DNA of 64,000 bases from an uncultured Candidatus Saccharibacteria bacterium (GTDB lineage Bacteria; Patescibacteriota; Doudnabacteria; UBA920): contig CAZEKH010000003.1 in NCBI GenBank assembly GCA_964512925.1, positions 80,772 to 144,771 of the forward strand, written 5' to 3'. The position numbers and the translations under genes are program-made. The stretch's first letter is position 1; every line of letters starts with the position of its first letter. The notes beneath the pieces are model-generated. The model did not search any database, was not told the DNA's origin, and was given only the letters and a program-made list of their open reading frames with translations. Of the stretch, positions 1,300 to 39,040 are shown piece after piece.

Positions 1300-1315
1300 A
1301 AAATAATAAACTTAA

Positions 1316-3687: not shown

Positions 3688-4771
3688 TTTGAGCCAGCGC
3701 TGTGATTAAATCAGCTACTGTTTCCGCCGCATTATGCGGCATAATTTTTTTTATGTTCTCCTGCATTACAAGTTGGTATTTATGGTCAAACATTAATTTT
3801 CGTATAAGCAAAGGAAAATTTTCAGGTTTTAAAAATTGTTGAGGCGCGAACAACGCCGCCTGCTTTTGTTCCAAATATATGGCATTAAGTTCCTGATGAG
3901 ATCTGGGCATTGGGACAATAATTGCCATTTTTCCCAAAACTGATAGCTCTGAAATTGTTGAAAGCCCGGCCCTGCAAACGACAAAGTCCGCGGCTTTATA
4001 AATTTCAGGCATATTGTCCGAAAACTCAATCTGAACATAATTTCTTCCGACGACATCTTTAGTTTTACCCTTGCCGGTAATATGACAAACTTGAACTATG
4101 CGGCATAACTCTGGTAAACACTCCCAAACCAAATTATTTAGGTATTCAGATCCTGTTCCTCCCCCCAAAACCAGTAGTACGGGCAAATCGTCTGAAAAAT
4201 TCAAACAAGCCCTGGCCTCCCTTGAAGTTTTTTTTATTTCAAGTTTTCTGGTCGGATTTCCGGTAAATATAATTTTTTCCGACTTATTTTTGAAAAATAT
4301 TCCACTGCCGGAATAAAAATGTTTTAAGGACAAAGGAAAAGTTACTGTAATTTTTTTTGCAAAAAATTGACAGAGTTTATTTGACCAGGACGGCACGATA
4401 TCCTGCTGATGGATAACGGAAGGGATGCCAAACAACTTTCCCGCCCAAATAACTGGAACCTGAACAAAACTCCCGGCCGCAAAAATGCAGTTTGGGCGAA
4501 ACTTGCGTATGATTTTTATCGCCTGGAACATACCGTAAAAAAACTCAAAAAAAGTTCCGGCATTTTTCAATGAAAAATAGCGGCGCCATTTGCCAGCGCT
4601 GATAGGTAAAAACGGCACATTCAAAACTTCACACATTTCTTTTTCCGGCCCATATTTGGTGCCGACAAATAAAAATTCGGCATTCGGTTGCTTTTCTTTG
4701 ATTTTTTCATAAACAGCCAAAAGGGGCGAAGTCGGGCCTCCGCTGCCGCCGCCAGCTAGCAAAATTTTCAT
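3677..4771 (-). CDS. murG: undecaprenyldiphospho-muramoylpentapeptide beta-N-acetylglucosaminyltransferase MurG
   Basis: N-terminal MKILLAGGGSGG (MurG GGTGGH-like G-loop) and C-terminal LVLGGGTGSE, in a GT28 architecture, next to murC. Confidence 0.7.
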   Translation of the reverse strand: MKILLAGGGSGGPTSPLLAVYEKIKEKQPNAEFLFVGTKYGPEKEMCEVLNVPFLPISAGKWRRYFSLKNAGTFFEFFYGMFQAIKIIRKFRPNCIFAAGSFVQVPVIWAGKLFGIPSVIHQQDIVPSWSNKLCQFFAKKITVTFPLSLKHFYSGSGIFFKNKSEKIIFTGNPTRKLEIKKTSREARACLNFSDDLPVLLVLGGGTGSEYLNNLVWECLPELCRIVQVCHITGKGKTKDVVGRNYVQIEFSDNMPEIYKAADFVVCRAGLSTISELSVLGKMAIIVPMPRSHQELNAIYLEQKQAALFAPQQFLKPENFPLLIRKLMFDHKYQLVMQENIKKIMPHNAAETVADLITALAQNDK

Positions 4772-5940
4772 AATTGTTTGCTTAAATTGTTATTTTCCGC
4801 CGATGTTTCCAAAATCCTTAAAGTTTTTTCCGCGCAATTTTTCCAATCAAAAATAAGACTTCTTTTCCAACTTTTTTCCTTAACTGTTTGAAAAAAATCA
4901 GCGTCTCTGGCAAGCAAATTCATTTTTTCCGCAATGTCATTGGTGTCCAACCCGTCAAAATACACAGCCGCATCGTCATATATCTCGTTAAAAGTCTCGG
5001 TATTAGCCGCGAGTAGGGGCAAGCCAAAGCTCATCGCTTCCACCCCGGGCAGCCCGAATCCTTCGTTCATTGAGGCGGAAACATAGGCATAGGCCGAAGC
5101 ATACAATGCCGACAACTCAGGGTCGGAAACTTCGCCTGTAAACACCAAACGGTTTTTATGTTTAATATCCATAGCATGATGTCTAATATCAGGATAATGC
5201 TTATCGGTTTTTCCGGCAATGACAAGATCAAAGTCATAACCGTATTTTTCAATAAAAATATCAAACCCTCTGCATAGGTTTATTAAATTCTTCTTTCTCT
5301 CCAAAGTGCCGACAAAAAGAAAAAACGGCCTGCGCAAAATATATCTGGCTTTTACTTCTTCAACGAATTTTTCTTCCGGCTTGTTTAACATAGTAAAACC
5401 TTCATACACAACTGAAATTTTTTGCGGATTTACGTTCAAAAATTGTTCTATGTCTTTTTTTGCAGATTCAGAAACAGAAATCACGGCCGCTGAACGACGA
5501 GCGGCGTTTTGAATTACTTTTTTATACGCCCAAAAATGTAGTAGTCTGCTTTTTTTTGCGCCACTGATTTTATGATGCACCAAATCATGAATTGTCACAA
5601 CAAAGGGATGTGGGCATTTTATGGGTACATTAAAATTGGGGAAAAACATCAAATCCAAGGGAGTTTTTTTTAGCAGTCTCGGATAACGTATTTGTTCCGC
5701 CAAAGAATAGTGTTTGATGTTAGCGGGAATCAATTCGGCATTTTTGTATTTGTCCGTGATTTTTAAAAGCAATACCGAATCCGTTTGGTTATAAAATATT
5801 TTATAGGAATTTTTAGAGTCAATATTTAAAAGTCCGGCCAAGAGTTCCTGGCTGTATCTGCCTATCCCGCCGTTTTTAAATCCGATAAGTCTTGCGTCAA
5901 ATCCAAAAATCATATATTCATAGCTTGAAATATTTGGCAA
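4768..5940 (-). CDS. glycosyltransferase family 4 (GT1/GT4 fold)
   Basis: C-terminal EGFGLPGVEAMSFGLPLLAANTETFNEIYDDAAVYFD matches the GT4 EX7E motif region. Confidence 0.8.
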   Translation of the reverse strand: MPNISSYEYMIFGFDARLIGFKNGGIGRYSQELLAGLLNIDSKNSYKIFYNQTDSVLLLKITDKYKNAELIPANIKHYSLAEQIRYPRLLKKTPLDLMFFPNFNVPIKCPHPFVVTIHDLVHHKISGAKKSRLLHFWAYKKVIQNAARRSAAVISVSESAKKDIEQFLNVNPQKISVVYEGFTMLNKPEEKFVEEVKARYILRRPFFLFVGTLERKKNLINLCRGFDIFIEKYGYDFDLVIAGKTDKHYPDIRHHAMDIKHKNRLVFTGEVSDPELSALYASAYAYVSASMNEGFGLPGVEAMSFGLPLLAANTETFNEIYDDAAVYFDGLDTNDIAEKMNLLARDADFFQTVKEKSWKRSLIFDWKNCAEKTLRILETSAENNNLSKQL

Positions 5941-7034
5941 ATTTTTTCCGCGGATCTCCGCCAGGAAAAATCACCTGCTCTTTGCCGGCCCTTTTTAACC
6001 AAATTATCTCTTAATTCTTTGTCTAAAAAAATTCGGCTCACTGCTTCCGATATTTGCCTAAAATCAAAAGGGTTTATAAGCAAAGCTCCGCCGCCAGCCA
6101 CTTCGGGCAGGGAGCTAAAGCTGGATGTGACCACGGGGGTTTTTGTAAAAAAACTTTCCAATACCTGAAAGCCAAAACCTTCATAATACGAAGGATAAAT
6201 CAAAACTTCAGCAGCGGCAATCAGAGCTTGTTTATCCGATTCTTTGACATAACCTAAATAATGTATTTTTGATTTTTTCTTATGCTGAAGAAGTTCTTTA
6301 AAAATTTTTCCCGCTTTCCATCCTCGTTTTCCCGCAATCACCAAATAACAATCATCGTCCAGAAGGGAAAATGCGTTTAAGACGGAACTTAAATTTTTTC
6401 GCGGCTCAATGGTATTTAAAAATAAGACAAACCTGCCAGGCAGCGAGAGCCTATTTCTGGCGCTTTTGATCGCTTCGCCCATATCTTGTTCACCCAGTTC
6501 CAAAAAGTCGGTTGCCGGATATACAACTTGCAGCTTACTGTCCGGAATATTAAATATTTTTTTCAAATCATTTTTGGTGGACTCGGAAACCGGCAAAAGC
6601 ATATCAGCCCGGGCGAATGAATTTTTATAATTAAGCAGCTTATGCCAAACCTTTCTTTTAAAGTCATAAAATTGCGGCATTATAATCGGCGACAAATCGT
6701 GGACTGTAACAACCACTTTAACATGCTTTTCAACATTAAATTGGTTTAAATTCGGCATAAATAAAATATCAATTTCGCCCAAAAATTTTTCCAATTTAAC
6801 TATTTTAAACATCAATAGTATGTTTAAAAGCTTATTTGGCCAGCGGATATGCTTAAATGTTGAGTTAATAAACTGAAATTGCTGAAAGTCCGGTTTTTTT
6901 AGACCGGTATAAAACAAAACATATTGATTTTTTCTATCAACCGTTAAAAGACCTTCTACGACATTTTTCGTATAGTTTTCCACTCCGGATATGGAGCCTG
7001 ATGACAGGCTTCTGAGGTCAACAGCCACTTTCAC
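5910..7034 (-). CDS. glycosyltransferase family 4
   Basis: EGFGFQVLESFFTKTPVVTSSFSSLPEVAGGGALLINP GT4 signature. Confidence 0.75.
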   Translation of the reverse strand: MKVAVDLRSLSSGSISGVENYTKNVVEGLLTVDRKNQYVLFYTGLKKPDFQQFQFINSTFKHIRWPNKLLNILLMFKIVKLEKFLGEIDILFMPNLNQFNVEKHVKVVVTVHDLSPIIMPQFYDFKRKVWHKLLNYKNSFARADMLLPVSESTKNDLKKIFNIPDSKLQVVYPATDFLELGEQDMGEAIKSARNRLSLPGRFVLFLNTIEPRKNLSSVLNAFSLLDDDCYLVIAGKRGWKAGKIFKELLQHKKKSKIHYLGYVKESDKQALIAAAEVLIYPSYYEGFGFQVLESFFTKTPVVTSSFSSLPEVAGGGALLINPFDFRQISEAVSRIFLDKELRDNLVKKGRQRAGDFSWRRSAEKICQIFQAMNI

Positions 7035-7040
7035 AAATAT

Positions 7041-8243
7041 TTAAAAATTTTTTAATATTTCCAAAATCCTTTTTTTAAACACTTCAGTTTCAAATTTTTT
7101 TGCTTGTTTTTGCAAATTTTGAATTAAATACTTTTCAGAATCCCAGTTTAAAATCTTTTGCTTAATACTCTCCTTGTCGTATGTTCTAAAAAATTCGCCC
7201 GTAACACCCTCAATGACCGTTTCCAAAGCCCCGCCCAGCCCATAAGCCAGAGTTGGGGTGCCGGCCGCGCCTGCTTCCAGGGGCATAAGCCCGAAATCTT
7301 CCAGCTGAGGATATATAAGGGCTTTAGCTCCCCTATACTGAGTTTTTAATTCTTCATCAGAAATTTTGCCTAAAAACTTAATATTATCTTTTGCTATCAA
7401 ACGCAAGTATTTTTCCTGCCTGCCTGAGCCCGCAATATGAAGCGGTATTTTCAAATCATTGAATATTTCGATTATTAAATCATTTTTTTTATGCGCTTGC
7501 AGCCTGCCGGCTAAAAGAAAATATGTTCTATTGCGAATTTCCGAATCACCGCCAGTTGCCCAAAAATCAAAATTTATTGACGGATATATCACTACGCTGT
7601 CCCGATTGTAGAATTTTTTTATCCGGTTTTGAACTTCTTTTGAATTAGCTATCAAAAAATCAATTTTTTTTACGCCATTTAAATCCCATTTTTGCATCCA
7701 ATTGATAAATACCTTCGCAACAGGCCTTAAAATATACGGCACTTCTTGTTTTATGTATTCTTTTTCTATCCATAAAAACCTTGTGGGACTATGACAAAAA
7801 CTGATGTGTTTGGCTCCGACTTTTAACTTAATGTTGCGGATAAATCCGGAGCTGGAAGAAATGACCAGGTCATAAGCCCTTAAATCCAGACTCTCTGCCG
7901 CGAAAGGAATCAATGGGAGTAAAAATTTAATATGCGGAACAAGCCTATAAACCGCGTTCAACCAGGTTGTCCGAATGTCCCAACCTTGGTATTTTTGCCT
8001 GTTTTTTTCGTCAAACACCAAAGTATAGACCGGCGAATTTGGAAACATCTCGTGCAAAATATCCACTACCCTTTCCGCTCCACCCATTTGGGTTAAACTA
8101 TCGTGTATTAAAGCAACATTTATTTTCGTATTTTTGTGCAAATTCGTATTCGTAAAATTTAATAATTTTCTTTGGGTTTTTTTGCAAAAAATAAAAACCA
8201 AAAACTCTTTGCCAAGATTTTTAAATCGCGTATAAACGACCAA
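7041..8243 (-). CDS. glycosyltransferase family 4. The true start is probably an internal Met because the 5' end overlaps the upstream gene by 85 nt.
   Basis: ALIHDSLTQMGGAERVV N-terminal GT4 motif and GLMPLEAGAAGTPTLAYGLGGALETV C-terminal motif. Confidence 0.7.
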   Translation of the reverse strand: MVVYTRFKNLGKEFLVFIFCKKTQRKLLNFTNTNLHKNTKINVALIHDSLTQMGGAERVVDILHEMFPNSPVYTLVFDEKNRQKYQGWDIRTTWLNAVYRLVPHIKFLLPLIPFAAESLDLRAYDLVISSSSGFIRNIKLKVGAKHISFCHSPTRFLWIEKEYIKQEVPYILRPVAKVFINWMQKWDLNGVKKIDFLIANSKEVQNRIKKFYNRDSVVIYPSINFDFWATGGDSEIRNRTYFLLAGRLQAHKKNDLIIEIFNDLKIPLHIAGSGRQEKYLRLIAKDNIKFLGKISDEELKTQYRGAKALIYPQLEDFGLMPLEAGAAGTPTLAYGLGGALETVIEGVTGEFFRTYDKESIKQKILNWDSEKYLIQNLQKQAKKFETEVFKKRILEILKNF

Positions 8244-9595
8244 TTTTCAATATAGTAAGTGTTGAGGCGGATTTCTTCTTCAAAAGGCAAATCCGGCCAA
8301 GTCAGCTGCGCCAGCTGCGAATAACCGAAAATTCCCGGCTTTATTGAAAACATTCTTCGATAGCGATTGCGGTATTTGTCAACTTCATCCAATACATGAG
8401 CCCTGGGGCCCACCATACTCATATCTCCCTTTAAGACATTCCAAAACTGAGGTAGTTCGTCAAGCTTTGTTTTTCGTAAAAATTTTCCTACTTTTGTAAC
8501 TCTCGGATCATCTTTGATTTTTAAAAAAGGCCCGCTTTCCCCTCCTCGGCTGTTTTGTTGCCATAACTCTTTTCTTACTTTCTCAGCCATCTGCCCCCCA
8601 TATTCATCACCTACGGACAAGTGGCTGAACATTGTCCGGAATTTGTAAAAACGAAAATCTTTTTTACAACCGCCCCTCATAGCCGAATAAATAACTTTTC
8701 CACGACTATTAAATTTCACGGCTAAAGTGATGATTAAAAAAAGCGGGGCTGTTAAAATCAAACATAAAATGGAAGCAAAAACATCGAAAACTCTTTTTGC
8801 GACTTTACCCCAGCCGTCTAAAGGAGTATTTTTTAACAATATCAAAGGTACCCCGCCTAACTCGGTGGTCTCCACCGAATTCCTTTGCACTTCAAACAAA
8901 TTCGGTATAAAACTGAATTCCAGGCCTTTGTTTCGGCAAAATTCAACCAATTTTAAATTATCTTCTTCGGGCAAAGATGAATCAGATTGCAATATTTCAT
9001 CAAAACCCGGATTTTCATAAAGTTTTTCCAAAACAATCCAGATGTTGTCGTCAAAAGAGGTTTCCTTTAAAACCCAAAAGCCCAAATTTTTATTTTTAAA
9101 ATATTGCCTTAAAAAATCCAAAGAACTTTCTTTTTTATACACAACCACAATTCTATGTTGTCCTATGCCTTTTTTAAACAAAAATTCCTGAAAAAGCTTC
9201 AAAGAAAAACGTCCCAAAACAACAAAAAATATTCCTAAAATCCAAGTAACCAAAATAATGAATCTTGAAGGAAAAATTGATTGGTCGAAGAAAAACAGCA
9301 GTATCACGACCAACAGACCCAGCGAAACCCCTATCAAGATCTGCTTTAACTCGGATAAAAATTTCCTGGTGCCTTTCAGACCGTATAAGCCAAGTAAAGC
9401 AAAAATAACTACAATAAAAGGCACTATTTTACAAGCCGTTATTACAAATTGGTGGAAATCCAACTCGTATAAAATCGGTTTAGAAAAAACCTGTGGATTT
9501 TTCCTCAAAAAAAAGGCGGTAACCCCGGCCAAAATGAGCATCGCCCCATCAAAAGGCACGGAAACAAAATTAAATATCAATTCTGATTTTTTCAT
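8159..9595 (-). CDS. undecaprenyl-phosphate sugar phosphotransferase (WbaP/CpsE-type priming glycosyltransferase)
   Basis: Multi-TM N-terminus followed by KRVFDVFASILCLILTAPLF...FYKFRTMF...PRVTKVGKFLRKTKLDELPQFWNVLKGDMSMVGPR (bacterial sugar transferase domain). Confidence 0.85.
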   Translation of the reverse strand: MKKSELIFNFVSVPFDGAMLILAGVTAFFLRKNPQVFSKPILYELDFHQFVITACKIVPFIVVIFALLGLYGLKGTRKFLSELKQILIGVSLGLLVVILLFFFDQSIFPSRFIILVTWILGIFFVVLGRFSLKLFQEFLFKKGIGQHRIVVVYKKESSLDFLRQYFKNKNLGFWVLKETSFDDNIWIVLEKLYENPGFDEILQSDSSLPEEDNLKLVEFCRNKGLEFSFIPNLFEVQRNSVETTELGGVPLILLKNTPLDGWGKVAKRVFDVFASILCLILTAPLFLIITLAVKFNSRGKVIYSAMRGGCKKDFRFYKFRTMFSHLSVGDEYGGQMAEKVRKELWQQNSRGGESGPFLKIKDDPRVTKVGKFLRKTKLDELPQFWNVLKGDMSMVGPRAHVLDEVDKYRNRYRRMFSIKPGIFGYSQLAQLTWPDLPFEEEIRLNTYYIENWSFIRDLKILAKSFWFLFFAKKPKENY

Positions 9596-9643
9596 ATTTG
9601 GCTTATATTATAGCATTTTTATTGATGAAAGCCAAATTTACAC

Positions 9644-11026: not shown

Positions 11027-11263
11027 TGAGCTGTGTAATTTGTTTCTATCAGTGTTCCACCTTGCCAAGCAATGCGTGGCAGGTCTGAGGACAATTATCT
11101 CTTCGCCCACTGAAAGGGGCTTCAAGCATTTTTCAGGCCGTATAAGTCAATTTTTGGCTTTCCAGCAAGTTTCGTATATTTGGCTGTAAAAGTGCCTTTT
11201 TTACCTTACATATACAGTATATATGAAGCCTTAACACTTGTCAACTGGACTTATCCACAAGCA

Positions 11264-11453: not shown

Positions 11454-12416
11454 TCAAATTTTTTTATTTAAAATTTTATGCCTTATCAAAACCTTAGACA
11501 TTCCATAGGTTAATTCCACCGGATCGGAAAAACCTTTTTTCTCAAATATGCGCCGGTGCTCATCTTGGCTCCGCTCTTTAGTCCAAGCCGTATAGTGCCT
11601 AAGTGTTGTCCTTTCGCTTTCGTGTCTGCATAGGTTTTGTACTGTTTTAATATCAGCCCCGCCCCTCAAAAGTTCCGTTGCAAATGTTGACCTAAAAATA
11701 TGTGGGTGTATTCTTTTGGTTATGCCCGCCCGCCTCATAGCCGTATGTATTGACCGCCGTATATTGCAAGGCTTAGCCCGGCGCCCGGTAAAACTTACAA
11801 AAAGAGGCTCAAAATTATCATTGCGCATTTCCAAATAACGCCTAACCCAGCTTAAACTTTCATCAGTAAAATAGATTTTACCTTCGGAATAAGGCGCTTT
11901 TCCGCTTTTTATTTTAGCCTCTTTTTTATACCAATCAATTGTTGATCTGTCTAAACCCAAAGCCTCCCCTATCCTCATACCAGTACACCGTAAAACCTCA
12001 ACCAGCGCCCGATCCCTAAGCCCTACGATCCAATTAGTATCAAAAGCATTTTGTACTCTTTCCCATTCTTCCGGGTCTAAAAATTCAATCATTTTTTTAG
12101 GCTCTTTAGGTAACCTTATATCCCGCCAATCAAAATCTAGTTTATATCCGGACTGTTTTATATACCATAACAACTGCCGAAAAACTACGCCCGCCCTAAG
12201 TGGTCCATATTTGCCGTGGTTCCGTGCTTCCTCATAGCACAAAGCAACATCGGTCATTTTCAGGTTTTTTATATCCTTTTCGCCTACTCGCGAAAAAGCA
12301 TTTTCAAATTGTTTTTTATAATCATACAAAGTTTTTGGGTTTAAACCGAGCTTTTGCTTATGCTCAATAAGTCCATTAAAAAAATCTTTTAGCTTCATAA
12401 AATGACAAAGACCCAC
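11454..12416 (-). CDS. int: phage integrase, tyrosine recombinase family
   Basis: C-terminal catalytic region contains R...HPHIFRSTFAT...LCRHESERTTLRHY (R-H-R-Y tetrad pattern). The start is more likely the internal ATG (MKLKDFF) near 12398. Confidence 0.9.
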   Translation of the reverse strand: MGLCHFMKLKDFFNGLIEHKQKLGLNPKTLYDYKKQFENAFSRVGEKDIKNLKMTDVALCYEEARNHGKYGPLRAGVVFRQLLWYIKQSGYKLDFDWRDIRLPKEPKKMIEFLDPEEWERVQNAFDTNWIVGLRDRALVEVLRCTGMRIGEALGLDRSTIDWYKKEAKIKSGKAPYSEGKIYFTDESLSWVRRYLEMRNDNFEPLFVSFTGRRAKPCNIRRSIHTAMRRAGITKRIHPHIFRSTFATELLRGGADIKTVQNLCRHESERTTLRHYTAWTKERSQDEHRRIFEKKGFSDPVELTYGMSKVLIRHKILNKKI

Positions 12417-17830: not shown

Positions 17831-19276
17831 TTAAAAGCTATATTTGCCGTTTAAACTTAACTTTGACATTATTGCCTCTTCAACTTTTTGCACTAACTCG
17901 TTACCGGAAATATCGCCGTAAACATTTACCACGACACTACTACCCGCATTATTTCCACCCAAAGACCCTGGGTTTTTTGTGGCTATTATAAAATCATCTG
18001 GGTGTGTAGTTATTATTTGTCCATTCTGAATAACTCCGTCATTAACACCCAAGAAATTTTTTGCCGAACTAAAACCACTTCCAATCGCCCCACCTACAGC
18101 ATTTATACCTCCCTTTAATTTATCGAGCGCATTAAATAATGGTTGTAATTTTTCATTAATCCAATCAATCGCTTTTTTAAATATATCCTTTATTCCTTCC
18201 CAAACATCAAAAAAGTATTGTTTTATTGCATTCCATTTTTCAGTAATTATTATTCTAATACCATCAAAAGTTTGATAAAAAAAGTCTTTTATTTTTGTCC
18301 AAATTTGAACGGCCTTTTGGGATATAATATCCCAGTTCATATACAACGCCACACCTATAGCAATCAAAGCTGTAATGGCAAGTATTACAAGACCAATGGG
18401 GCTAAGAAGTAATCCAATAGCTGCAATTAATCCGGGTAAAATTATTAAAAGTGGACCAACGACAACCAAAAAACCACCGAGAGCAGCTGCAACAATTATT
18501 ATTTGTTCGGTTAACTTTGGATTTTTGTCCATCCAGTCTGATAATCTATCTAACAGTGGTAATAGATGATTATTGACCAGTTTGGTCAAATGGGGATTTA
18601 ATACATTACCAATTTTTTCTCCCAAATCTCCCAATGTTTCATTTAAGATTTTGAGTTGCCCAGTTGGTGTTTTTCCGACTGCTTCAGCCAACCCGCCAAA
18701 CTGACCTTTTAAAGCCTCAATTGCCATAGCCGATCTTTCACTTTGGCTCATGTGTTTTAAAGTTTCGTCGCTAACTAATTTTAAATCCGGGACCAACCTT
18801 TTTAGTGCATCAACCTCACCTAAATATGCCAAAGACAAAACCCTTGTCGCAGCCTCGGCGTTCATTTTTCCACTAGTTTCTATATCTAATGCCAGACTAG
18901 CTAATTCTGTGGCTTTTGTAACATCCTTAACTGTTGGCAACATTAAACCCACAATTTTAGAAGAATACTCATCGGAAATACCCGTTAGTCTTTGAGTTTT
19001 GCTAGAAAATTCTTCAATTGATCTTTTAGTTTTATCAAAATCCAAACCGCTCAGTCTAATTTGTTGTCCTACTTTAGCCCATGCTTCATCGCTGTCTGCG
19101 GCGGCTTTCATTGAAAAACCTAAAGCAGCTACAATTCCACCACCAACTATCGTCGCAGCTTTACCAACCTGATTAAATTGGTCTTCCATTGACTTAATAC
19201 TTGATCCAATTTTTGATATGCTTCCTGTAGCGTTATCAATAGCATTTATTACAATTTGTAATACCGTATTAGACAT
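17831..19276 (-). CDS. tail tape measure protein
   Basis: N-terminal TMP-type region (QIVINAIDNATGSISKIG...), a long internal hydrophobic segment (LGGFLVVVGPLLIILPGLIAAIGLLLSPIGLVILAITALIAIGVALY), and a Gly-rich C-terminus. Confidence 0.55.
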   Translation of the reverse strand: MSNTVLQIVINAIDNATGSISKIGSSIKSMEDQFNQVGKAATIVGGGIVAALGFSMKAAADSDEAWAKVGQQIRLSGLDFDKTKRSIEEFSSKTQRLTGISDEYSSKIVGLMLPTVKDVTKATELASLALDIETSGKMNAEAATRVLSLAYLGEVDALKRLVPDLKLVSDETLKHMSQSERSAMAIEALKGQFGGLAEAVGKTPTGQLKILNETLGDLGEKIGNVLNPHLTKLVNNHLLPLLDRLSDWMDKNPKLTEQIIIVAAALGGFLVVVGPLLIILPGLIAAIGLLLSPIGLVILAITALIAIGVALYMNWDIISQKAVQIWTKIKDFFYQTFDGIRIIITEKWNAIKQYFFDVWEGIKDIFKKAIDWINEKLQPLFNALDKLKGGINAVGGAIGSGFSSAKNFLGVNDGVIQNGQIITTHPDDFIIATKNPGSLGGNNAGSSVVVNVYGDISGNELVQKVEEAIMSKLSLNGKYSF

Positions 19277-19423
19277 ATTTTTTATTTGCCTTTTTTAATT
19301 CGTCAGCCTGATTTTTAAGCCTGTTAGCTATAGCCACAATAAAGTCCCAGCGTTGATCTAAATACTCCTGTTCAGTCCAGCCCATCTCCAAACAAATTGC
19401 AACTTTAAAGTCTTCTATTAGGT

Positions 19424-19756
19424 CTACAGGCTCTTGTCTAAAAAACTTTTTGTTAAATCTAATTCGGAAAAAATGCTATTAATATCAGCTATGTCTATTT
19501 TTCCGACATTCTCAAGACTAACGGGTAAAACATTTCCAGCTTCGTCTTGCAAATTCCATTCCTTAATAATTTTAGTTAGCATTAAAAGTAATTTAGGCTT
19601 GCCGGTTGTTTCACTAAATACATCTATATCGGCGGCTAAAAGACCGTTATAAACTTGTATTACTCCCCCTTCAATACTCTTAAGCTTAATTTCTATTATT
19701 TTTCGTGTGTCTTTTAAAATTGGCATTTTGTTATTTTTTCCCTTACCACTTGACAT
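19424..19756 (-). CDS. hypothetical protein (tail assembly chaperone position)
   Basis: Small acidic ORF between the major tail and tape measure genes. Confidence 0.3.
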   Translation of the reverse strand: MSSGKGKNNKMPILKDTRKIIEIKLKSIEGGVIQVYNGLLAADIDVFSETTGKPKLLLMLTKIIKEWNLQDEAGNVLPVSLENVGKIDIADINSIFSELDLTKSFLDKSL

Positions 19757-19805
19757 AATTAGTTAATTGTTGTATAGTGGTCATATTAATAATTAGATTT
19801 TAAAT

Positions 19806-20072
19806 ATGGATGAAATAATACAAGAGTTTAAATTAAATTTTGGTATTTTTTATAAACTTAGACTGTATAAAGATAAGGTAGTAATTAATAAACTTTTTTC
19901 AAAGAAAGTAATACCAGTCCAAAAAATTGCAAATGTTTCTTATAACAAATTAACTGGCCGAGTATTTATAGAAACATCGGGCGGAGAAAAAACAGTAATT
20001 AGAAGTTTTATTTTTGGTAGCTGGCATAATCCCGAAAAGATACAAGAGGCTATATTAGCACTTATTAAATAA
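19806..20072 (+). CDS. moron gene 1: small bacterial-PH-domain-like protein
   Basis: 88-aa plus-strand ORF embedded in the minus-strand tail module. It resembles the short bPH/YdbT-like fold (inference from pattern only). Confidence 0.4.
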   Translation: MDEIIQEFKLNFGIFYKLRLYKDKVVINKLFSKKVIPVQKIANVSYNKLTGRVFIETSGGEKTVIRSFIFGSWHNPEKIQEAILALIK

Positions 20073-20075
20073 AAA

Positions 20076-20339
20076 ATGCCTAAAAATTTATACGATTTAG
20101 CCTCACCACACATTAATTCAAAAGCTGCAAAATCTTGGGCTGAAACAGGAATAAAGAACGCTATTATATTTTCTTGCAAAGATGAGTTGACCTGTGAAGC
20201 CTGTAAAAGAGCAGATGAACAAAAAATTTCAACTGAGTCTGCCCAAAATCCTGACAATGTTCCTCCTTGGAAATTTTGTACAAGCAAACAGGGTTGTCGC
20301 TGCATCCTAAAACCTATTGTTGATGTTAATGATTTTTAG
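20076..20339 (+). CDS. moron gene 2: Cys-rich small protein paralogous to the C-terminal ~80 aa of the portal-MuF fusion protein
   Basis: Moron SKAAKSWAETGIKNAIIFSCKDELTCEACK...GCRCILKPIV aligns with portal C-terminus NTAAKEAWKQNGISKIIWFTAEDELVCAYCN...NCRCITKPVV. Confidence 0.45.
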   Translation: MPKNLYDLASPHINSKAAKSWAETGIKNAIIFSCKDELTCEACKRADEQKISTESAQNPDNVPPWKFCTSKQGCRCILKPIVDVNDF

Positions 20340-20342
20340 TTT

Positions 20343-20374
20343 AACCCCCGCGCACAGGCGCGGGGTTTTCTTTT
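20343..20374 (+). terminator. rho-independent terminator of the plus-strand moron
   Basis: aacccccgcgc-acag-gcgcggggttttcttttaaa. Perfect 9-bp GC stem followed by a T-run. Confidence 0.65.
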
Positions 20375-20378
20375 AAAC

Positions 20379-21368
20379 TTAGTAAGAAGTTTGTGCATTT
20401 GTAACTAAGCAAGTAATTGCTTTTGAGTCACTGGAGGAATATACTGGTTTGAAACTTACATCTTGCATAATTACATCATTTAATTTAAATTCTCTCCCGA
20501 GTTGGGTGAAATAAACTTTAGCTAAGTCAATTCTAACTAGAGGAGTTGCTGAAGTTCCTATGGTGACATCCGAATTTGCAATATCTATACGAAGTGCTTT
20601 TGCAGTGTTTCCCAAAAATGTTGTTTTAAATGAAGCTTCGTCTTGCCAAAATGCTGTAACACTACCCTCAATTGAAATGTTTTTATTTAAGAAGTCGGCA
20701 GGGTCAACGCTTCCTAAAACAAAATCTTCTTCTATGTTGGCCTTGATAGAAAGTTTAAATGACTTAATTGTTACTGCAGAAGCCGCACCTAAACCTGCTA
20801 AGTTAGAAGCTAACTTAAATGTTACATGTTTGTGCGTGAAGCGGTTTTCGGTACTTGTTGCCGGGGTTAGAGTAGCCGTTGCACCTTTCTTAGCACGAAA
20901 ATCTATTTTGTAGGTTATATATTGACCTAACTCATAGCTGATTTCTAAAGAGTCAATCATTCCAAGACCATGTTTGTAATCTTGCCCACCAGCTGGATCA
21001 TCCAAAAATATAGACAAAGCTTGGTGTTGTGAAGTTTGGCCGACTGTAATTGTGTGGTCTTTTATAGTTCCGCTGCCATCAGCGTTTGCGGCTGTGCTTA
21101 AACTTCCTAAAACATTAAGTAAAATTAAAGCAAAATGTTTGTCAGAAATGGGAGCGGTTAAAGATCCTTTCATGTATTGCTTAGCAATATCCCTACTAAA
21201 TGAGTCTTCAATCACGCCGTAAGACTCTTGGTTAATAATATCTTCCTGTATTTCATCGATGTTTATATCTTTCCAAGGAATCCAAAAACTGGCTGCGGTT
21301 TCAGGTGTTCCGCGCACAGTTTCTTTTGCAATTCCGAATTGAGTTGTTCGTCCTATCGCTTTTGGCAT
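20379..21368 (-). CDS. major tail protein (putative)
   Basis: 329-aa protein in the position of the tail tube gene, downstream of the connector genes. No motif found. Confidence 0.4.
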   Translation of the reverse strand: MPKAIGRTTQFGIAKETVRGTPETAASFWIPWKDINIDEIQEDIINQESYGVIEDSFSRDIAKQYMKGSLTAPISDKHFALILLNVLGSLSTAANADGSGTIKDHTITVGQTSQHQALSIFLDDPAGGQDYKHGLGMIDSLEISYELGQYITYKIDFRAKKGATATLTPATSTENRFTHKHVTFKLASNLAGLGAASAVTIKSFKLSIKANIEEDFVLGSVDPADFLNKNISIEGSVTAFWQDEASFKTTFLGNTAKALRIDIANSDVTIGTSATPLVRIDLAKVYFTQLGREFKLNDVIMQDVSFKPVYSSSDSKAITCLVTNAQTSY

Positions 21369-25831: not shown

Positions 25832-26158
25832 TTAAGATTTAGGTAATTTAGGCAATACTCTGATTTTTATTCCCGAGTAAGTAACTGTTTGTCCTGAAAT
25901 AGTCACCTTAATTTCTGCATCAAATTCCCCTATTTCGTCAAAATTTCCTGTGGCCACGGTATATTTGCAAGTGCCGGCGGGGCCGCTTACAATACTCATC
26001 GATCCAGTAAACTTAAGTCCTGTGTTGTGTTGTTTTTGAACATTCAACACAATTGTCGCGCCGGTTATGTTAATAACCCCGCCTGAATAGTCCTGTAATG
26101 TGAAATTCAGATCATAACCTACATCGTCTTGTATAACTTCGGTATTAGTTATTTGCAT
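25832..26158 (-). CDS. hypothetical Ig/beta-sandwich-like structural protein
   Basis: 108 aa. Assigned by position. Confidence 0.3.
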   Translation of the reverse strand: MQITNTEVIQDDVGYDLNFTLQDYSGGVINITGATIVLNVQKQHNTGLKFTGSMSIVSGPAGTCKYTVATGNFDEIGEFDAEIKVTISGQTVTYSGIKIRVLPKLPKS

Positions 26159-26159
26159 A

Positions 26160-27683
26160 TTATTTGGGCAGTCTTAAAGTATTATTTTTTTTAGTATCTT
26201 TAAGTCCAATGGAATTTTTAAATACTTGTTTTAAAATATAACTTTTGATTTTTGAAAACCCTGCCATACTGGCTGAAAAAACATTCAACAAATCAACAAA
26301 TAAATTGCTTTCAACAAAAGTTTTATAGATTTTTTTTACTAGACTATCAGTTACCGAAACTACTTCCGACAATGTTTTAAGAAAAACTCTGATTGAAGTT
26401 ACAATATCTGTATACACCGCTGATTCCGTAAATGTTTTTGTTATTTGTTTAACAAGACTATCCACATAACTCTGAATTTCGCTAAATGTTTTAGTTACTG
26501 ACTTAACCAAACTATCACTGCTTGTTACAGTTTCGGTTAGAGTTTTTAAAAAAACCCTTATTGTGGTTAAAACATCGCTGTTGGTTACTGCATCTGTTAA
26601 CCTTTTTGTGACACTTTTTGTCAAAGTATCAACTATAGACCGTGCTTCGCTTAATATCTTGTTGACCGATTTAACTAAACTATCAGTATTGGTTACAGTT
26701 TCAACCAAATTTTTAAGAAAAATTCGGATTGTTGTTAATGTATCGCTGTTGTTTATACTTTCGTTTAATCTTTTTAAGACACTGCGTATTAATGAGTCAG
26801 TAAAGTTTTGAATTTCAGTATTATTTTTTGATACACTTTTAACAAGGATATTTCCCATCAAATTATTTTCCGCAAACAGTTTTGCAACTTGTTTTGTTAA
26901 AGTATCATTTATTGAAGTTAATTCGGTTAATGTTTGAAAGTATGAACCAGCATTCAAATTTCCCATTATTTTGTCAGGAAAAACAAGTAAACTGTAAGGA
27001 TTGCGACTGATAATTCTAACTTCATGAGGACTTAAAACGCGATTATATTTAAGAAAATATCCTATATTTCCATCATAAAATTTTTCTGCGGCTGGCCAGT
27101 GACCGGCTCCTATTGCGGTGTTAGACAAATTAAATCCTTGTATATTTGTCCCATTTCCATCTTTATTACCATCTAAATAAAATTGATAGTCTCCAGTAGT
27201 GGAGTTATAACTTAATCCACCGTGGTGAAATTTATTTGCTGTAAGCGCGGTGTTGCTTTGGCCTAATTGCAAAGTTTGCGAAGATAAAAATCCTTGAACC
27301 GATGCATACCATCTGTATTCAATTCCTGCGCTTGCATTTGTTGTATAAATTCCGTTTACTTGCGCCCCTGGGTTATCCAGCTCCGCCCCAACTAACAAAG
27401 TAAATGTTTGGCTCATATACTTTGCGTCAGTACCCATATCTATATACATCGTTCCCGAGTAAAATCTCGGCGTTACCCCATCACCTTGCACCGATGTCCA
27501 TTTTTGATCATTTGGGTTTGTTAAAGTAAATGTTTTGTTATCAACCAAATTTCGGACAGTATTGCCTCCGCGTTCCAAAAAGAAAAAAGCAATATCAAGT
27601 CCTCTGGTCAACGGATTATTTCTATCCAAAACCGCTCCAGCTGGTGGTTTTATTTTCCAAGTTTTTGGACGTAAAATAATCAT
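26160..27683 (-). CDS. LamG/concanavalin-like domain protein with about five tandem ~40-aa repeats (candidate head fibre/adhesin)
   Basis: N-terminal lectin-like domain (...YFLKYNRVLSPHEV...). C-terminal imperfect repeats such as TDSLVKSVTKTFSEIQSYVDSLVKQITKTFTE, with visible ~120-nt DNA periodicity at 26300-26850. Confidence 0.45.
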   Translation of the reverse strand: MIILRPKTWKIKPPAGAVLDRNNPLTRGLDIAFFFLERGGNTVRNLVDNKTFTLTNPNDQKWTSVQGDGVTPRFYSGTMYIDMGTDAKYMSQTFTLLVGAELDNPGAQVNGIYTTNASAGIEYRWYASVQGFLSSQTLQLGQSNTALTANKFHHGGLSYNSTTGDYQFYLDGNKDGNGTNIQGFNLSNTAIGAGHWPAAEKFYDGNIGYFLKYNRVLSPHEVRIISRNPYSLLVFPDKIMGNLNAGSYFQTLTELTSINDTLTKQVAKLFAENNLMGNILVKSVSKNNTEIQNFTDSLIRSVLKRLNESINNSDTLTTIRIFLKNLVETVTNTDSLVKSVNKILSEARSIVDTLTKSVTKRLTDAVTNSDVLTTIRVFLKTLTETVTSSDSLVKSVTKTFSEIQSYVDSLVKQITKTFTESAVYTDIVTSIRVFLKTLSEVVSVTDSLVKKIYKTFVESNLFVDLLNVFSASMAGFSKIKSYILKQVFKNSIGLKDTKKNNTLRLPK

Positions 27684-27685
27684 AT

Positions 27686-28165
27686 TTATACCGCTTGCGC
27701 ATACAAACCTTGATAAATTTTGGCGTGGTTGCCTTCGGTAGAATCCAAGGCAGCGCCGGATTTATTTTCAACAACAATACCCCACTTTTCAGGCATAACG
27801 CCGCCAAACGCTTGTGCTACTGAAAATGTAGCTTTGTAAGTTGTAGCGTTTGAAACAACATTGATTACGCCCAAAAATTTAAGGTTTGTTGGTGAAATTA
27901 AAGTTATAGCCGCATCAGTAGAGCCGGCATTTTCGGTTCTATTGGTCCCGCCATCAGCCGTACCATACGCATAAACATTCACATAACCGGTAGTTAACAC
28001 GCCGGACGCTCCGCTCTTAATGTTTAGGTGCAAAATTACATCCATAAAAACATTTGTGCTGTTGTCAATTTCTGTGGACTGCCTAGCCGAGTTATTAGCT
28101 AAAGAGGCTAAAGAGCAAGTGATGCTTTGATTATTGGTTCCAAATTTTTGTTTAATATCAGCCAT
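27686..28165 (-). CDS. hypothetical structural protein
   Basis: Assigned by position between portal and protease. Confidence 0.3.
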   Translation of the reverse strand: MADIKQKFGTNNQSITCSLASLANNSARQSTEIDNSTNVFMDVILHLNIKSGASGVLTTGYVNVYAYGTADGGTNRTENAGSTDAAITLISPTNLKFLGVINVVSNATTYKATFSVAQAFGGVMPEKWGIVVENKSGAALDSTEGNHAKIYQGLYAQAV

Positions 28166-28169
28166 ATTT

Positions 28170-28673
28170 TTATATTGCCAACGCTTGTGCTATATCGTCA
28201 GCGGTTATGGAATTATTTATGTAAGGAATACCAGAGGTTATAACATTGAAGCGTGGGGCAAAATCCTGTTTAACTGTTCTTTCTTTTTCTACATCCCTTG
28301 CTGGATGTACTTTACTGTTTGCTGTTGAAACAATACTCGCAAATTCAGTATTAAGTGTGGTAGTTCCTGAAACAACCGAACCATCTGGTTTTACAATTCT
28401 GTTATCCCCAATATATGGGTAAGATTTAGTAACTTCCTCGTATGCTTGCCTAAAAGTTACCTCTGGCTCGTGGATAGTATCTACAACCACGTGGCTTATT
28501 GAATAAGGACTATTCATCAAGTCCGCAATTTCTTGATTGTTTTTGCCGGCATATCCCTGCTCTGCCGGATCATTTTGTATTTCTTCTTTAACTTTCAAAA
28601 GTGCTTGATTCAAATAAGCCTGGGCTTGTTCTGGCGAAACTCCGTCAGATATTAATGCGTTGTTATTAATCAT
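28170..28673 (-). CDS. hypothetical structural protein
   Basis: Assigned by position. Confidence 0.3.
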   Translation of the reverse strand: MINNNALISDGVSPEQAQAYLNQALLKVKEEIQNDPAEQGYAGKNNQEIADLMNSPYSISHVVVDTIHEPEVTFRQAYEEVTKSYPYIGDNRIVKPDGSVVSGTTTLNTEFASIVSTANSKVHPARDVEKERTVKQDFAPRFNVITSGIPYINNSITADDIAQALAI

Positions 28674-28685
28674 ATTTTTTATAAA

Positions 28686-29288
28686 TTAAGAGGCTTGAAT
28701 TTTCCAAGTAAACTGCAAGCTGTCGCCGGATGCTAAGTTGACGGCAGTAAATACTTGCCTGCAAAGCATTGTCCCAGCTGTAGCGGCATTAAATACCCCA
28801 CTTTCGGTAACCGCAATTGTAGCGGACGCGGTAGCAGTTCCCTGCAATTGGGCAGTGTCGTTGGTAACAGTGGTTGTTACGCGCGAGGCGGTTGGCGCGG
28901 CAATAACATGGGTTGTAGTTGCGCCGTTCGAGGCATCTTTTTCGGTTTGTAGCGCGGTGTCGCCGGCAGCGGCCGCGGTTGTACCAGTCCCCCAGCCAAT
29001 ATATGCAAATACTGCTTCGGCGCCCGATCCGTTGATCCTTGAAGCAATAGCGGCTTTACCAGCCGAAACGACGAGGTTTGCTACAACTCTTTTGTTGGAC
29101 CAAGAGCCAAACAAAAAATCCAATTTGCCTAAAGCCCCATTAATCCAGTTAGGATTTAACAAATTCTTTTTTAACAAAAACCTAGTCAAAGAGTTTTCCT
29201 GAAACATTGGTTTAATGTTTCCGTCTTTGTCAAAATGCTGGTACTCAACAACCCCCAGCGGGGTTAAATTTTCGCTTTTCAATTCCAT
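28686..29288 (-). CDS. hypothetical Ala/Thr-rich structural protein
   Basis: Assigned by position. Low-complexity A/T/G-rich C-terminal half. Confidence 0.3.
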   Translation of the reverse strand: MELKSENLTPLGVVEYQHFDKDGNIKPMFQENSLTRFLLKKNLLNPNWINGALGKLDFLFGSWSNKRVVANLVVSAGKAAIASRINGSGAEAVFAYIGWGTGTTAAAAGDTALQTEKDASNGATTTHVIAAPTASRVTTTVTNDTAQLQGTATASATIAVTESGVFNAATAGTMLCRQVFTAVNLASGDSLQFTWKIQAS

Positions 29289-29320: not shown

Positions 29321-31450
29321 TTATAAATCATCTGCGCTAACTACTGGTTTTGTTATACATCGGCAATTAGTATGCAATGCGCCGGCCTCAATGTTCGCAT
29401 AGTTGAAATTCAATGTTTGACCATCTACCGTCAAGCTATCGCCTTTGTTAAAAAAGTTTTCTTCAATACCTATCTCTTTGCCGTCCATGTCGTTACAATA
29501 CGCGCAAACTAATTCATCCTCGGCCGTAAACCAGATTATTTTAGATATACCGTTCTGTTTCCAAGCTTCTTTGGCGGCAGTATTAGCCACTCGGAAAGTT
29601 TCGGTTTTAGCGACGGCTTCGGCGCGGCTTTTGTCGAAATACTCCTCAATTTCGGCTATACGATCCGGTATACTTACGCCGTCAGTTATTGCGGCTTCTA
29701 AACTTCCTTTTAAAAGTTCTTTCGTAACATCGCTATAACTTTGACCTAAAAGATTTATGGCTTTGTCTAAAGCTTTTTGGAGTTCGGGAGTGAATTTAAA
29801 ATCGTCCCTATTGATCAATTTTGCCCCCGCCAAGCCCTCTTTTTTGTAAAGTTCAGTAAGTGTTGGTTTATTTAAATCAACACTTAAAGTAACTATTTCG
29901 TCCTCGTCATACAGATCATCTGGATCAATTGCCTTGCTTTTTATTTTGTCGATATTTTTTCTAACCTGTTTAAAAATTTCTTTGTTTACCTTGCGCGTGT
30001 TTTCTGTCATTTGCTTTTCAAACGGGGCAACCCTTGACACCATACCTTTCCAAACCGCCTGCATTTTTTCCCGATTGAAATCCTTTTCGTTTTTAATAGG
30101 TATTTCCGAAACTGCTTTAATCGCACTAGCTACCAAATTATCCGCAACTTTGTTTATTGGATTTTCTTTCCTTGGCATTTTGTTTATAACAACGCCCTTT
30201 GCCTGCGGTTTGTATTTTTTTGTGCTTTTTACTGCTTCGCCTAAAGGAGATTTGCTAAAGTCGGTCATGACCGCATCGCCGTTAGCAATTGGTACTAAAC
30301 CGTGTTCTTCCCTAACCTCGTTAACAGTTTTATACGGCTGTTGGGCTAAAGCTGCCTGATCTTCTTCAATTTCCAACTGTTTATTTTCCGGCGTTGGATC
30401 TACATAACCTAAAACTAAATCCTCTCCAAATCTTGGGATTAAATAGGTATTGAAAAATTCGGTTATTAAATCTAACTTTGGTTTTATTGTTCTTGTGGCA
30501 AAAATATAGTCAGTAGCTTCGGCGTTAGCTCGGTTAACATCCTCTGTTAAACCCAAGACAGACTTAGGTACACGAAAACCTGCCATAATCTTGTCTCGCA
30601 TATCCTTAGAGCTATTTGTAAAATCCATTTCCTGCTGCGTACGCTGGGCAGGAGTAAATTTTGTACCCTGCGGCATTGCAACTGTTTTGTAGGCATTTTT
30701 AGATCCGGCGTGGAGTTCTTGAAACTTTGTAGCCATATAATCCAGCATTTCCGGGCTGGTATAATCCGAGCTTTCCAAGTAACCCCCAACCATTGCAAAA
30801 TTTTCAAAGAATTTTCGGTTAAATTCAGTAGCAAAATTATCGCTATCAATCCAGCCAGGTATGCCAGCAACTACGCCCATGCCGTCAAAAAGTTTTACCG
30901 GGGACGGATATCGGACGCATAAAACTTGGTCAATGGTATATTGCTGTGTTTTATCTGACCTAAGTGTGTATTTATAGCCTTTAATCAAGTCTTGAATTGT
31001 ATCCCCCATTATTGGGGTCAAATACTGCGGATAAAGCGGGTATATTCCTTTTGGCTTGCCCAAAGCATCAGTTACGCCGTCTAAATACAAATATGCTTTT
31101 CCTACCAAAACCAAATGCACACCCAACAAAAATTTAAGTTCCCATCCTGTCTGATAGCTGTTCGGCTTATTTAAAATATCTAAAAGTTCGTGGTTAAAAA
31201 TTTCTTCCTGCTCATCATTTTTGTTTGTTTTAAAAAGCCTAAATTTAGTTTTAGCAATTTCCTCGCCAATAACCGAAGCACAAGCATAAACCCAGCCATT
31301 ATATGCTTCCATTGCCGCGCGTGGGTCAATATCTTTGCCCGAAAGGATAGCCAAAAGCCCGCTGGAATTACCGGCAGCGGTCATGTAAGGCGCCAAGCCT
31401 TTTTTACTCAGATATCCGAGCTTTTCAAAAACTCGGTCTAAAAAATTCAT
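29321..31450 (-). CDS. portal protein fused to Mu-F/SPP1-gp7-like head morphogenesis domain
   Basis: 709 aa. N-terminal portal-like region, and a C-terminus ending ...ALHTNCRCITKPVV (the HxNCRC motif typical of the MuF family). Confidence 0.7.
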   Translation of the reverse strand: MNFLDRVFEKLGYLSKKGLAPYMTAAGNSSGLLAILSGKDIDPRAAMEAYNGWVYACASVIGEEIAKTKFRLFKTNKNDEQEEIFNHELLDILNKPNSYQTGWELKFLLGVHLVLVGKAYLYLDGVTDALGKPKGIYPLYPQYLTPIMGDTIQDLIKGYKYTLRSDKTQQYTIDQVLCVRYPSPVKLFDGMGVVAGIPGWIDSDNFATEFNRKFFENFAMVGGYLESSDYTSPEMLDYMATKFQELHAGSKNAYKTVAMPQGTKFTPAQRTQQEMDFTNSSKDMRDKIMAGFRVPKSVLGLTEDVNRANAEATDYIFATRTIKPKLDLITEFFNTYLIPRFGEDLVLGYVDPTPENKQLEIEEDQAALAQQPYKTVNEVREEHGLVPIANGDAVMTDFSKSPLGEAVKSTKKYKPQAKGVVINKMPRKENPINKVADNLVASAIKAVSEIPIKNEKDFNREKMQAVWKGMVSRVAPFEKQMTENTRKVNKEIFKQVRKNIDKIKSKAIDPDDLYDEDEIVTLSVDLNKPTLTELYKKEGLAGAKLINRDDFKFTPELQKALDKAINLLGQSYSDVTKELLKGSLEAAITDGVSIPDRIAEIEEYFDKSRAEAVAKTETFRVANTAAKEAWKQNGISKIIWFTAEDELVCAYCNDMDGKEIGIEENFFNKGDSLTVDGQTLNFNYANIEAGALHTNCRCITKPVVSADDL

Positions 31451-38900: not shown

Positions 38901-38962
38901 TTATTTTAACTTACTTAGTCTTACCCCCATTAAAACTTAGGGGTAAAGAAAGAAAACTATTA

Positions 38963-39040
38963 ACTCCAACTCCTACTCCAACTCCAACTCCAACTCCTAC
39001 TCCAACTCCTACTCCTACTCCTACTCCAACTCCCACTCCT
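38963..39040. repeat. hexanucleotide microsatellite (A/T/C)ACTCC x 13
   Basis: aactcc/tactcc units counted directly. Intergenic between two minus-strand phage genes. Confidence 0.9.

Follow-up and report, generated by a model that had tools for sequence, protein, structure and literature searches.

Morons are phage genes carried as independent promoter-terminator units (PMC3594210); they are the main route by which prophages give their hosts new traits, and most of these small genes are functionally obscure. The type moron is HK97 gp15 (Juhala et al. 2000; Cumby et al. 2012), a gene within the tail operon that confers superinfection exclusion (PMC3594210); it encodes a single YebO-like inner-membrane protein for which an exclusion phenotype has been shown. 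The two-gene cassette described here resembles gp15 in several respects: it has its own predicted promoter and terminator, lies in the tail operon of an integrated temperate phage beside a tail-assembly-chaperone-like gene, and occurs in some phages but not in related ones. Unlike gp15, the cassette consists of two genes on the strand opposite to the operon and encodes soluble and unrelated products, a PH fold and a MuF core.

The second gene of the cassette, ORF2, leads to another well-described group, the MuF proteins of the SPP1 gp7 and Mu gpF type (PF04233, TIGR01641). The muf gene usually lies beside the portal gene, and phages with two of them are exceptional, 614 genes being recorded in 611 phage genomes (PMC5576092). 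SPP1 gp7 binds strongly to the portal, passes into the capsid and helps infection to begin, at which stage the module binds both portal and DNA; of virions made without gp7, about 25% are infectious (PMC6316719). MuF also serves widely to target effectors to the capsid (PMC5576092, PMC5512222). The phage studied here has a second MuF-related gene in addition to its portal-fused MuF, a rare situation by the published count (PMC5576092). ORF2 shares with the MuF proteins the fold and the C-terminal core motifs W..G, PP.. and CRC, with CxxC in place of R..H, and the core motifs are also found in the portal-MuF of this phage. It is unlike MuF minor capsid proteins in comprising ~60% of the domain, in being encoded in the tail module on the opposite strand, and in having no effector extension. 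We consider with good confidence that the cassette is an accessory moron rather than a tail component; its architecture is that of a textbook moron, and its new content is a rare family of stand-alone, shortened MuF proteins.

Prophage setting and probable host

The window, by which we mean the whole stretch of DNA that was analysed (64,000 nucleotides), carries nearly all of its genes on the minus strand. Host genes flank both ends, with murC/murG-like and glycosyltransferase genes on one side and, on the other side from 42.5 kb, a ribosomal-protein/rpoA cluster and alaS, which were assigned by eye from their translations. Between these blocks lies an integrated, siphovirus-type prophage of ~31 kb, which also carries a RecT-like gene and genes for a prohead protease, a major capsid protein and a large terminase. 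The landmarks used below are as follows.

11454-12416: tyrosine integrase (Pfam 2.1e-32)
17831-19276, minus strand: tape-measure gene (PHROG matches)
19269-19391: T-like ORF of 40 aa, after the chaperone gene
19424-19756, minus strand: tail assembly chaperone-like gene, 110 aa, downstream flank of the cassette (position and synteny in relatives)
20379-21368, minus strand: tail tube (major tail) gene, upstream flank of the cassette (Pfam Phage_tube_2 6.7e-21)
29321-31450, minus strand: portal-MuF fusion, 709 aa (Pfam Phage_portal 1.5e-48 and Phage_Mu_F 7.9e-12)
29321-29704, minus strand: MuF domain of the portal-MuF, residues 583-709, the resident paralogue of ORF2

A 12-nt core, CTTCGCCCACTG, is duplicated at 11101-11112 and 42548-42559, and each copy completes the last codons of rpsI (..QWAKR-stop), which fits integration of the prophage at the 3′ end of that gene. 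A search at near-identity of 20 kb of this DNA against GenBank phages gave zero matches. The sole genome-resolved relative of the tail tube protein comes from a Candidatus Kaiserbacteria MAG, and Shine-Dalgarno sequences are almost absent from the window (8/67 genes). For these two reasons the host is probably a CPR/Patescibacteria bacterium; the phage lineage seems to infect this group, whose prophage biology is almost unexplored.

Architecture of the opposite-strand cassette

An earlier note, made by inspection of the letters, had described two plus-strand genes, alone among minus-strand phage genes, between a tail-chaperone gene and the major-tail gene and with a strong terminator of their own. 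The re-analysis agrees on each of these points, and resolves the unit into four features.

19750-19778, plus strand: predicted sigma-70-type promoter, TTGACA-17-TATAGT (11/12 consensus matches)
19806-20072, plus strand: ORF1, 88 aa, soluble PH-fold protein, the variable or swappable gene
20076-20339, plus strand: ORF2, 87 aa, Cys-rich mini-MuF, the constant gene
20346-20375, plus strand: intrinsic terminator of the cassette (hairpin and T-run)

All convincing genes around the cassette are on the minus strand. The remaining plus-strand ORFs of the prophage look non-coding, and the cassette is therefore its only convincing opposite-strand unit. On one flank the tube gene is identified by its Phage_tube_2 domain; on the other, the 110-aa gene has zero family matches and is called chaperone-like from its position and synteny. 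ORF1 and ORF2 are separated by 3 nt, forming a compact two-gene operon, and their leaders resemble those of other genes in this Shine-Dalgarno-poor genome. Comparison of ORF2 with its 61%-identical homologue P0002 gave pN 0.24 and pS 0.81, which indicates purifying selection. An antisense ORF of 121 aa (19940-20305) was considered as a real gene and rejected, being interrupted in both relatives checked, L003 and L006.

The –35 hexamer of the predicted promoter overlaps the opening two codons of the divergently oriented chaperone gene. Over both strands of the 64-kb window (128 kb), 7 sites reach 11/12 matches or better, versus 3.3 expected; of the other six, several are in or close to the integrase end and the far, RecT-side end of the prophage. 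The promoter had gone unmentioned in the earlier note. At the other end of the cassette, the terminator stem (20346-20365) consists of 8 bp, all of them G:C, and is followed by TTTTCTTTT; the T-run is present on the plus strand only, and the fold has an energy of –19.6 kcal/mol (z –3.45). The hairpin stands 14 nt past the stop codon of the convergent tube gene.

Distribution in related phages

Mini-MuFs of this kind are scarce. HMMER, run exhaustively over 1.8 billion representatives, returned seven proteins at E<=0.001, ORF2 included, and a profile search returned eleven at E<=0.01, a count that includes ORF2 and the members of the query alignment. Counted over both the 1.8 billion cluster representatives and a database of 5.8 billion proteins, the family amounts to about a dozen proteins. 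Scans of IMG/VR gave no true relatives, whether the query was the tube protein, ORF2 by itself or an alignment of four mini-MuF sequences; two weak matches in IMG/VR to ORF2 residues 1-34 were disregarded. Among ~35 related tail modules, the mini-MuF cassette was found in only four phage types, and statements about cassette-bearing phages refer to this small sample (n=4).

Window: PH-like gene, then mini-MuF; tube/chaperone junction
L003: 102-aa protein with a Zn-ribbon and two TM segments, then mini-MuF (61% identity); tube/chaperone junction
L006/L007: 59-aa two-TM peptide, then mini-MuF (35% identity); tube/chaperone junction
L011: mini-MuF first, then an 88-aa protein starting MDEI; between the tape-measure 3′ end and a 500-aa Dit-like gene

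The mini-MuF always lies in an opposite-strand unit with a terminator (4/4 types), and a promoter-like site accompanies it in 3/4. In L003 this site occupies the same place and reads, by eye, TTGACA-17-TATGGT; in L006, again at the same place, it is TTGTAA-17-TATAGT with a TG (9/12). Terminator hairpins are found at the equivalent place in L003, L006 and L011, with differing sequences. In L011 the order of the two genes is reversed relative to the window.

Thirty-one further loci were gathered through alignment of the tube protein. An hmmsearch over all of their ORFs revealed no mini-MuF near the tail genes in these 31 loci, the only matches being portal-MuF C-termini. In ~18 loci that extend far enough on either side, nothing interrupts the run of tube, chaperone and tape-measure genes, and no spacer with a hairpin is present at the tube/chaperone junction of relatives that do not carry the cassette. 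The existence of an orthologous cassette in every relative is ruled out by the ~18 uninterrupted loci and by the use of two different junctions. The survey thus describes a patchy and mobile element, found at two junctions and absent from 31 loci. Together with the predicted promoter and terminator, the uninterrupted relatives and the change of junction uphold the earlier proposal that the cassette is accessory and not structural to the tail.

The same slots are occupied by other inserts in further relatives.

L044: homologue of ORF1 alone (E 4e-8), with TTGACA-17-TATTAT and a terminator, opposite strand; between the chaperone and tape-measure genes
L015: DUF350 membrane protein and a secreted protein, opposite strand; after the tube gene
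L035: membrane-anchored OB-fold protein, opposite strand, in the tail module (PHROG 8545 ‘superinfection exclusion Sie-like’, 5e-23)

Because of these inserts, the tail-module junctions of this lineage are a hot spot for small opposite-strand units. The cassette and the other junction inserts, as small, self-contained units on the opposite strand, fall within the definition of morons. Sie-like morons (PHROG 8545) provide a further comparison: L035 has one inserted on the opposite strand in this part of the tail module, and its presence indicates that these slots host exclusion-type morons. For an exclusion role of the cassette studied here it is no more than contextual support. ORF1 and ORF2 lack a membrane anchor and are dissimilar in sequence to the L035 protein. 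The list of inserts also revises the earlier picture of a fixed pair: the mini-MuF is constant, its partner may be PH-like, a Zn-ribbon protein with TM segments, or a two-TM peptide, and the PH-like gene occurs by itself in L044.

ORF2 as a predicted stand-alone MuF core

ORF2 residues 14-87 align with residues 623-709 of the portal-MuF at 29% identity, with the CxxC and CRC motifs included (BLASTP E 5e-10), and a profile of the ORF2 family aligns with the portal C-terminus in hhalign (96.9%, E 1.6e-10). The resemblance first noticed by eye is therefore significant when the alignment is run formally. Searches against PHROGs matched ORF2 to minor head protein families (PHROG 2841, 1.4e-5). Of the two domain models, TIGR01641 (the SPP1 gp7 domain) aligned over its positions 46-107/109 with 17 bits, against a cut-off of 39.65, and PF04233 gave no match at E<=1. 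The connection to MuF also runs through P0004, a protein of 172 aa that passes both PF04233 and TIGR01641; aligned with P0004 and the portal, ORF2 is without the N-terminal helices that bear the (T/N)E.FR.AN motif. The AF2 model of ORF2 has a pLDDT of 88.4. In a Foldseek search against BFVD with this protein, every named match among the top 50 was a MuF-type minor capsid or head-morphogenesis protein, with 8 matches at E<=0.001 (TMq 0.49-0.72).

The portal-MuF alignment and the profile, PHROG and partial TIGR01641 matches identify ORF2 as a stand-alone MuF core. As judged from these comparisons, it is a free core without the N-terminal 40% (~45 positions) of the domain. The earlier description of a stand-alone MuF C-terminal domain is thus borne out in homology and fold and needs amending in extent, as only about the C-terminal 60% is present and scores lie below the Pfam and TIGRFAM thresholds. 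Five cysteines (C40, C43, C68, C74 and C76) are invariant in the ORF2 family, which suggests a zinc site. The ORF2 gene lies 9 kb from the portal, in the tail module and on the opposite strand, and is neither next to nor fused to the portal gene. PF04233 itself was considered as a BECR-fold toxin and rejected; the literature places BECR domains as C-terminal additions to MuF.

ORF1, the PH-like protein

The topology of ORF1, with seven strands and a C-terminal helix, is that of a PH fold, in agreement with the earlier assignment of this protein as PH-like. Its profile matches lie below the Pfam thresholds (bPH_5, 18.5 bits vs 22.5; bPH_8, 13.4 bits vs 27), so that its likeness to the bacterial PH domains (bPH_5, PF10882; SunI-like bPH_8, PF23491) consists of topology and weak profile matches. 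Many bPH proteins carry a transmembrane anchor; unlike these, ORF1 has none. ORF1 is probably related to the 88-aa protein of L011. BLASTP gave no match between the two, a Smith-Waterman comparison gave z 4.6 against shuffles, and the kinship is put no higher than probable because its support consists of this score and a transitive link via L044.

Proposed function and alternatives

Database searches for function were negative within their scope: PADLOC had no significant match for ORF1, ORF2, their homologues or their partners, NCBIfam held no functional family for the cassette proteins, and PHROGs gave no Sie match for ORF1 or ORF2. Unlike typical Sie proteins, ORF1 and ORF2 have no visible TM segment, signal peptide or hydrophobic segment; TM segments or a Sie-like match were found only in the L003 and L006 partners and in the L035 gene.

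We propose, as a reading that may equally well prove right or wrong, that the cassette is an accessory moron expressed in lysogeny and acting on other phages through decoy or exclusion. Its sigma-70-type promoter would allow the cassette to be transcribed in the repressed prophage, with the head-on late operon switched off. Transcription from a repressed prophage is standard moron logic (PMC3594210). The cassette product would then alter how the lysogen deals with other phages. Specifically, the free MuF core could act as a decoy for the usual binding partners of the MuF module, and the decoy could disturb infection or assembly of superinfecting relatives, with the PH-like or membrane partner localising or modulating the MuF core. 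Taken separately, the decoy or exclusion mechanism must be called unlikely. The basis of the decoy idea, SPP1 gp7, is a distant relative of ORF2, and the shortened core, minus the N-terminal ~45 positions, may keep different contacts than a full MuF.

A bolder form of the proposal is that a capsid-internal ‘pilot’ domain has here been exapted as a prophage-expressed decoy, which would be the first such case. A Zn-bound free core made in the lysogen would attach to the portal-MuF or the DNA end of related phages, whether incoming or in assembly, and so prevent productive infection; the setting would be phages of the little-known CPR/Patescibacteria. The exchangeable partner would then set location or specificity, and the tail that ORF2 shares with the resident portal-MuF after the CRC motif (below) would represent molecular mimicry. 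We regard this form as unlikely. If a free MuF core does interfere with other phages, it would offer a handle on the molecular job of the widespread MuF domain; if it does not, the cassette would be a well-documented but ordinary moron.

Alternatively, the cassette could serve the lytic cycle, with the mini-MuF acting as an extra or free MuF subunit in assembly (for example in packaging inside the capsid, DNA-end binding or ejection) that complements the portal-MuF, and the partner acting as a co-factor. The mini-MuF does have the MuF fold and the Zn motif, and in the L003 comparison ORF2 diverges at the rate of the tube gene (61% identity to P0002, and 58% for the tube gene). The residues after the CRC motif also hint at co-evolution with the head machinery. 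In ORF2 and P0002 these read KP(I/L)VDV.D(F/L), similar to KPVVSADDL in the portal-MuF of the same phage, whereas the seven related portal-MuFs have an unlike tail, RPEE(I/L)S/T.., often ending ISIE. However, most relatives, whose particles are built from the same head and tail genes, have no mini-MuF, transcription of the cassette is head-on to the late operon, and its position varies within the tail module. In addition, the partners in L003 and L006 are membrane peptides and thus cannot be capsid cargo. A lytic-cycle helper is in our view distinctly unlikely, and we continue to prefer a moron expressed in lysogeny.

A two-gene toxin-antitoxin or abortive-infection module, with one product toxic and neutralised by the other, which would stabilise the prophage or kill infected cells, is suggested by the compact operon with its 3-nt spacing and its own signals, and by the frequent association of MuF domains with toxin domains and small immunity genes (PMC5576092, PMC5512222). 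In MuF toxins, MuF is the capsid-targeting part and not the toxin (PMC5512222; bioRxiv 10.64898/2026.08.28.747851). Against such a module, Pfam, NCBIfam, PHROGs and PADLOC revealed no toxin, nuclease or antitoxin domain. The partner varies (PH-like, Zn-ribbon-TM or two-TM) and the PH-like gene occurs alone, and the genes are therefore a poor fit to a cognate pair. We consider this explanation very unlikely.

Origin and age of the two genes

The earlier note had interpreted ORF2 as an intra-phage duplication of the portal C-terminus, a claim that did not survive comparison with other mini-MuFs. ORF2 is 61% identical to P0002 and 46% to P0004, versus 29% to its own portal-MuF, and it is closer to P0002, P0004 and P0005-P0009 than to the latter. 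The portal-MuF domains of the lineage form a group of their own, with 47-49% mutual identity and a ~20-residue insert that the mini-MuFs are without. Identity at third codon positions between ORF2 and the 3′ end of the portal gene is ~30-36%, about that expected by chance, and no sign of recent copying is seen in the nucleotides. Because of the same third-position identity, recent gene conversion linking ORF2 with the 3′ end of the portal gene was also rejected. These sequence relationships make ORF2 and the portal-MuF paralogues, whose split would be old unless the gene was acquired horizontally.

A more specific version of the duplication, in which a recent copy of the portal C-terminal module has been kept by chance and is drifting without function, would account for the significant similarity to the resident portal-MuF in particular (42 bits, with the portal-MuFs of other phages at or below 25). 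It is contradicted by the 29% identity and near-chance third positions, by the greater closeness of ORF2 to P0002, P0004, P0005, P0006 and P0007, and by purifying selection on a gene conserved across three diverged phages, and we regard it as highly improbable. Next to no probability attaches to the suggestion that these are chance ORFs in an AT-rich spacer, the real element being either the 121-aa minus-strand ORF or a terminator or attenuator behind the tube gene; the hairpin just past the tube stop codon, the existence of that antisense ORF and the want of a Shine-Dalgarno sequence speak for it, but it is refuted for ORF2 by significant homologies, a confident fold and protein-level conservation with saturated synonymous sites, and it conflicts with the interruption of the antisense ORF in L003 and L006, with a T-run on the plus strand only, with a genome that hardly uses Shine-Dalgarno sequences (8/67), and with relatives that have neither cassette nor hairpin spacer.

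Base composition adds to the history of the preferred accessory cassette. The GC content of ORF2 is 36%, as in the neighbouring genes, and the cassette as a whole lies at the 9th percentile. The neighbour-like GC and the tube-like divergence indicate that ORF2 is a long-term resident of the sub-lineage and not a recent import; it looks like a selected gene of that sub-lineage. ORF1, at 26.9% GC (GC3 17%) vs 37.8% for the prophage, looks like a later arrival than ORF2.

Relationship of the mini-MuF to other MuF cores

The residues that follow the CRC motif provide an opportunity to compare the mini-MuF, the stand-alone shortened MuF core encoded by the second gene of the opposite-strand cassette (20076-20339), with the portal-MuF fusion of the same prophage (29321-31450). 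The two are similar here (ILKPIVDVNDF versus ITKPVVSADDL), whereas seven portal-MuFs of related phages (L014, L017, L020, L023, L025, L028 and L044) differ after CRC, ending RPEE(I/L)S/T.., often ISIE. No recent gene conversion between the mini-MuF and the resident portal-MuF is visible at the nucleotide level, and their likeness may reflect co-evolution or mimicry.

In addition, MuF-core domains occur as fusions with N-terminal zinc ribbons in the loci and proteins below, one of these fusions also carrying a C-terminal TM segment:
L008, 8001-8501
L010, 8001-8390
P0005, P0008 and P0010-P0014

On the large contigs with readable context (L008 and L010), no phage structural genes are obvious near the fusions, and the MuF core therefore occurs beyond the portal-adjacent setting too.

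Other genes of the tail and head modules

In three related phages, the tail module that holds the cassette here carries other opposite-strand morons:
L044, 7520-7783, minus strand: homologue of the PH-like first cassette protein (ORF1), alone
L035, 7555-8049, minus strand: OB-fold membrane protein with matches to PHROG 8545 'Sie-like' (5e-23) and to Pfam tRNA_anti-like (7e-23)
L015, 1666-2089, minus strand: DUF350 membrane protein and a small secreted protein

The interval from the portal-MuF gene to the prohead protease is occupied as follows:
25832-29288, minus strand: five same-strand genes

Among their products are a BppU_N-like protein of 108 aa, identified by a sub-threshold match, and one of 507 aa that contains internal ~40-aa repeats and whose L006 homologue weakly matches Laminin_G_3. 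A head module with fibre- or baseplate-like genes is unusual.

Prophage ends, probable integration site and likely host

The prophage is flanked on either side by a direct repeat:
11101-11112 and 42548-42559: 12-nt repeat CTTCGCCCACTG

Chance would be expected to yield ~0.15 such matches between the two regions compared. This repeat brackets the prophage, and the codons after each copy complete the ribosomal protein S9 C-terminus (..QWAKR*). The arrangement suggests site-specific integration into the rpsI 3′ end, with the replacement gene end supplied by the phage.

The host flanks (800-9600 and 42500-64000), the near absence of Shine-Dalgarno sequences (8/67 genes in the window), the single-strand gene orientation and the fact that a Candidatus Kaiserbacteria MAG (L014) carries a related prophage together point to a CPR/Patescibacteria host. 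Going by contig names, many related contigs come from groundwater fractions of 0.1-0.2 μm.

Other sequence features

Two further features lie within the prophage:
38962-39039, intergenic, early region: hexanucleotide tandem array (AACTCC)x13
41971-41999, plus strand: perfect sigma-70 consensus TTGACA-17-TATAAT, antisense within the RecT-like gene (41151-42065)

If translated, the array would encode (TP)n or (GV)n. The sigma-70 consensus lies close to the prophage's far end, where transcription from it may yield a regulatory or antisense RNA.
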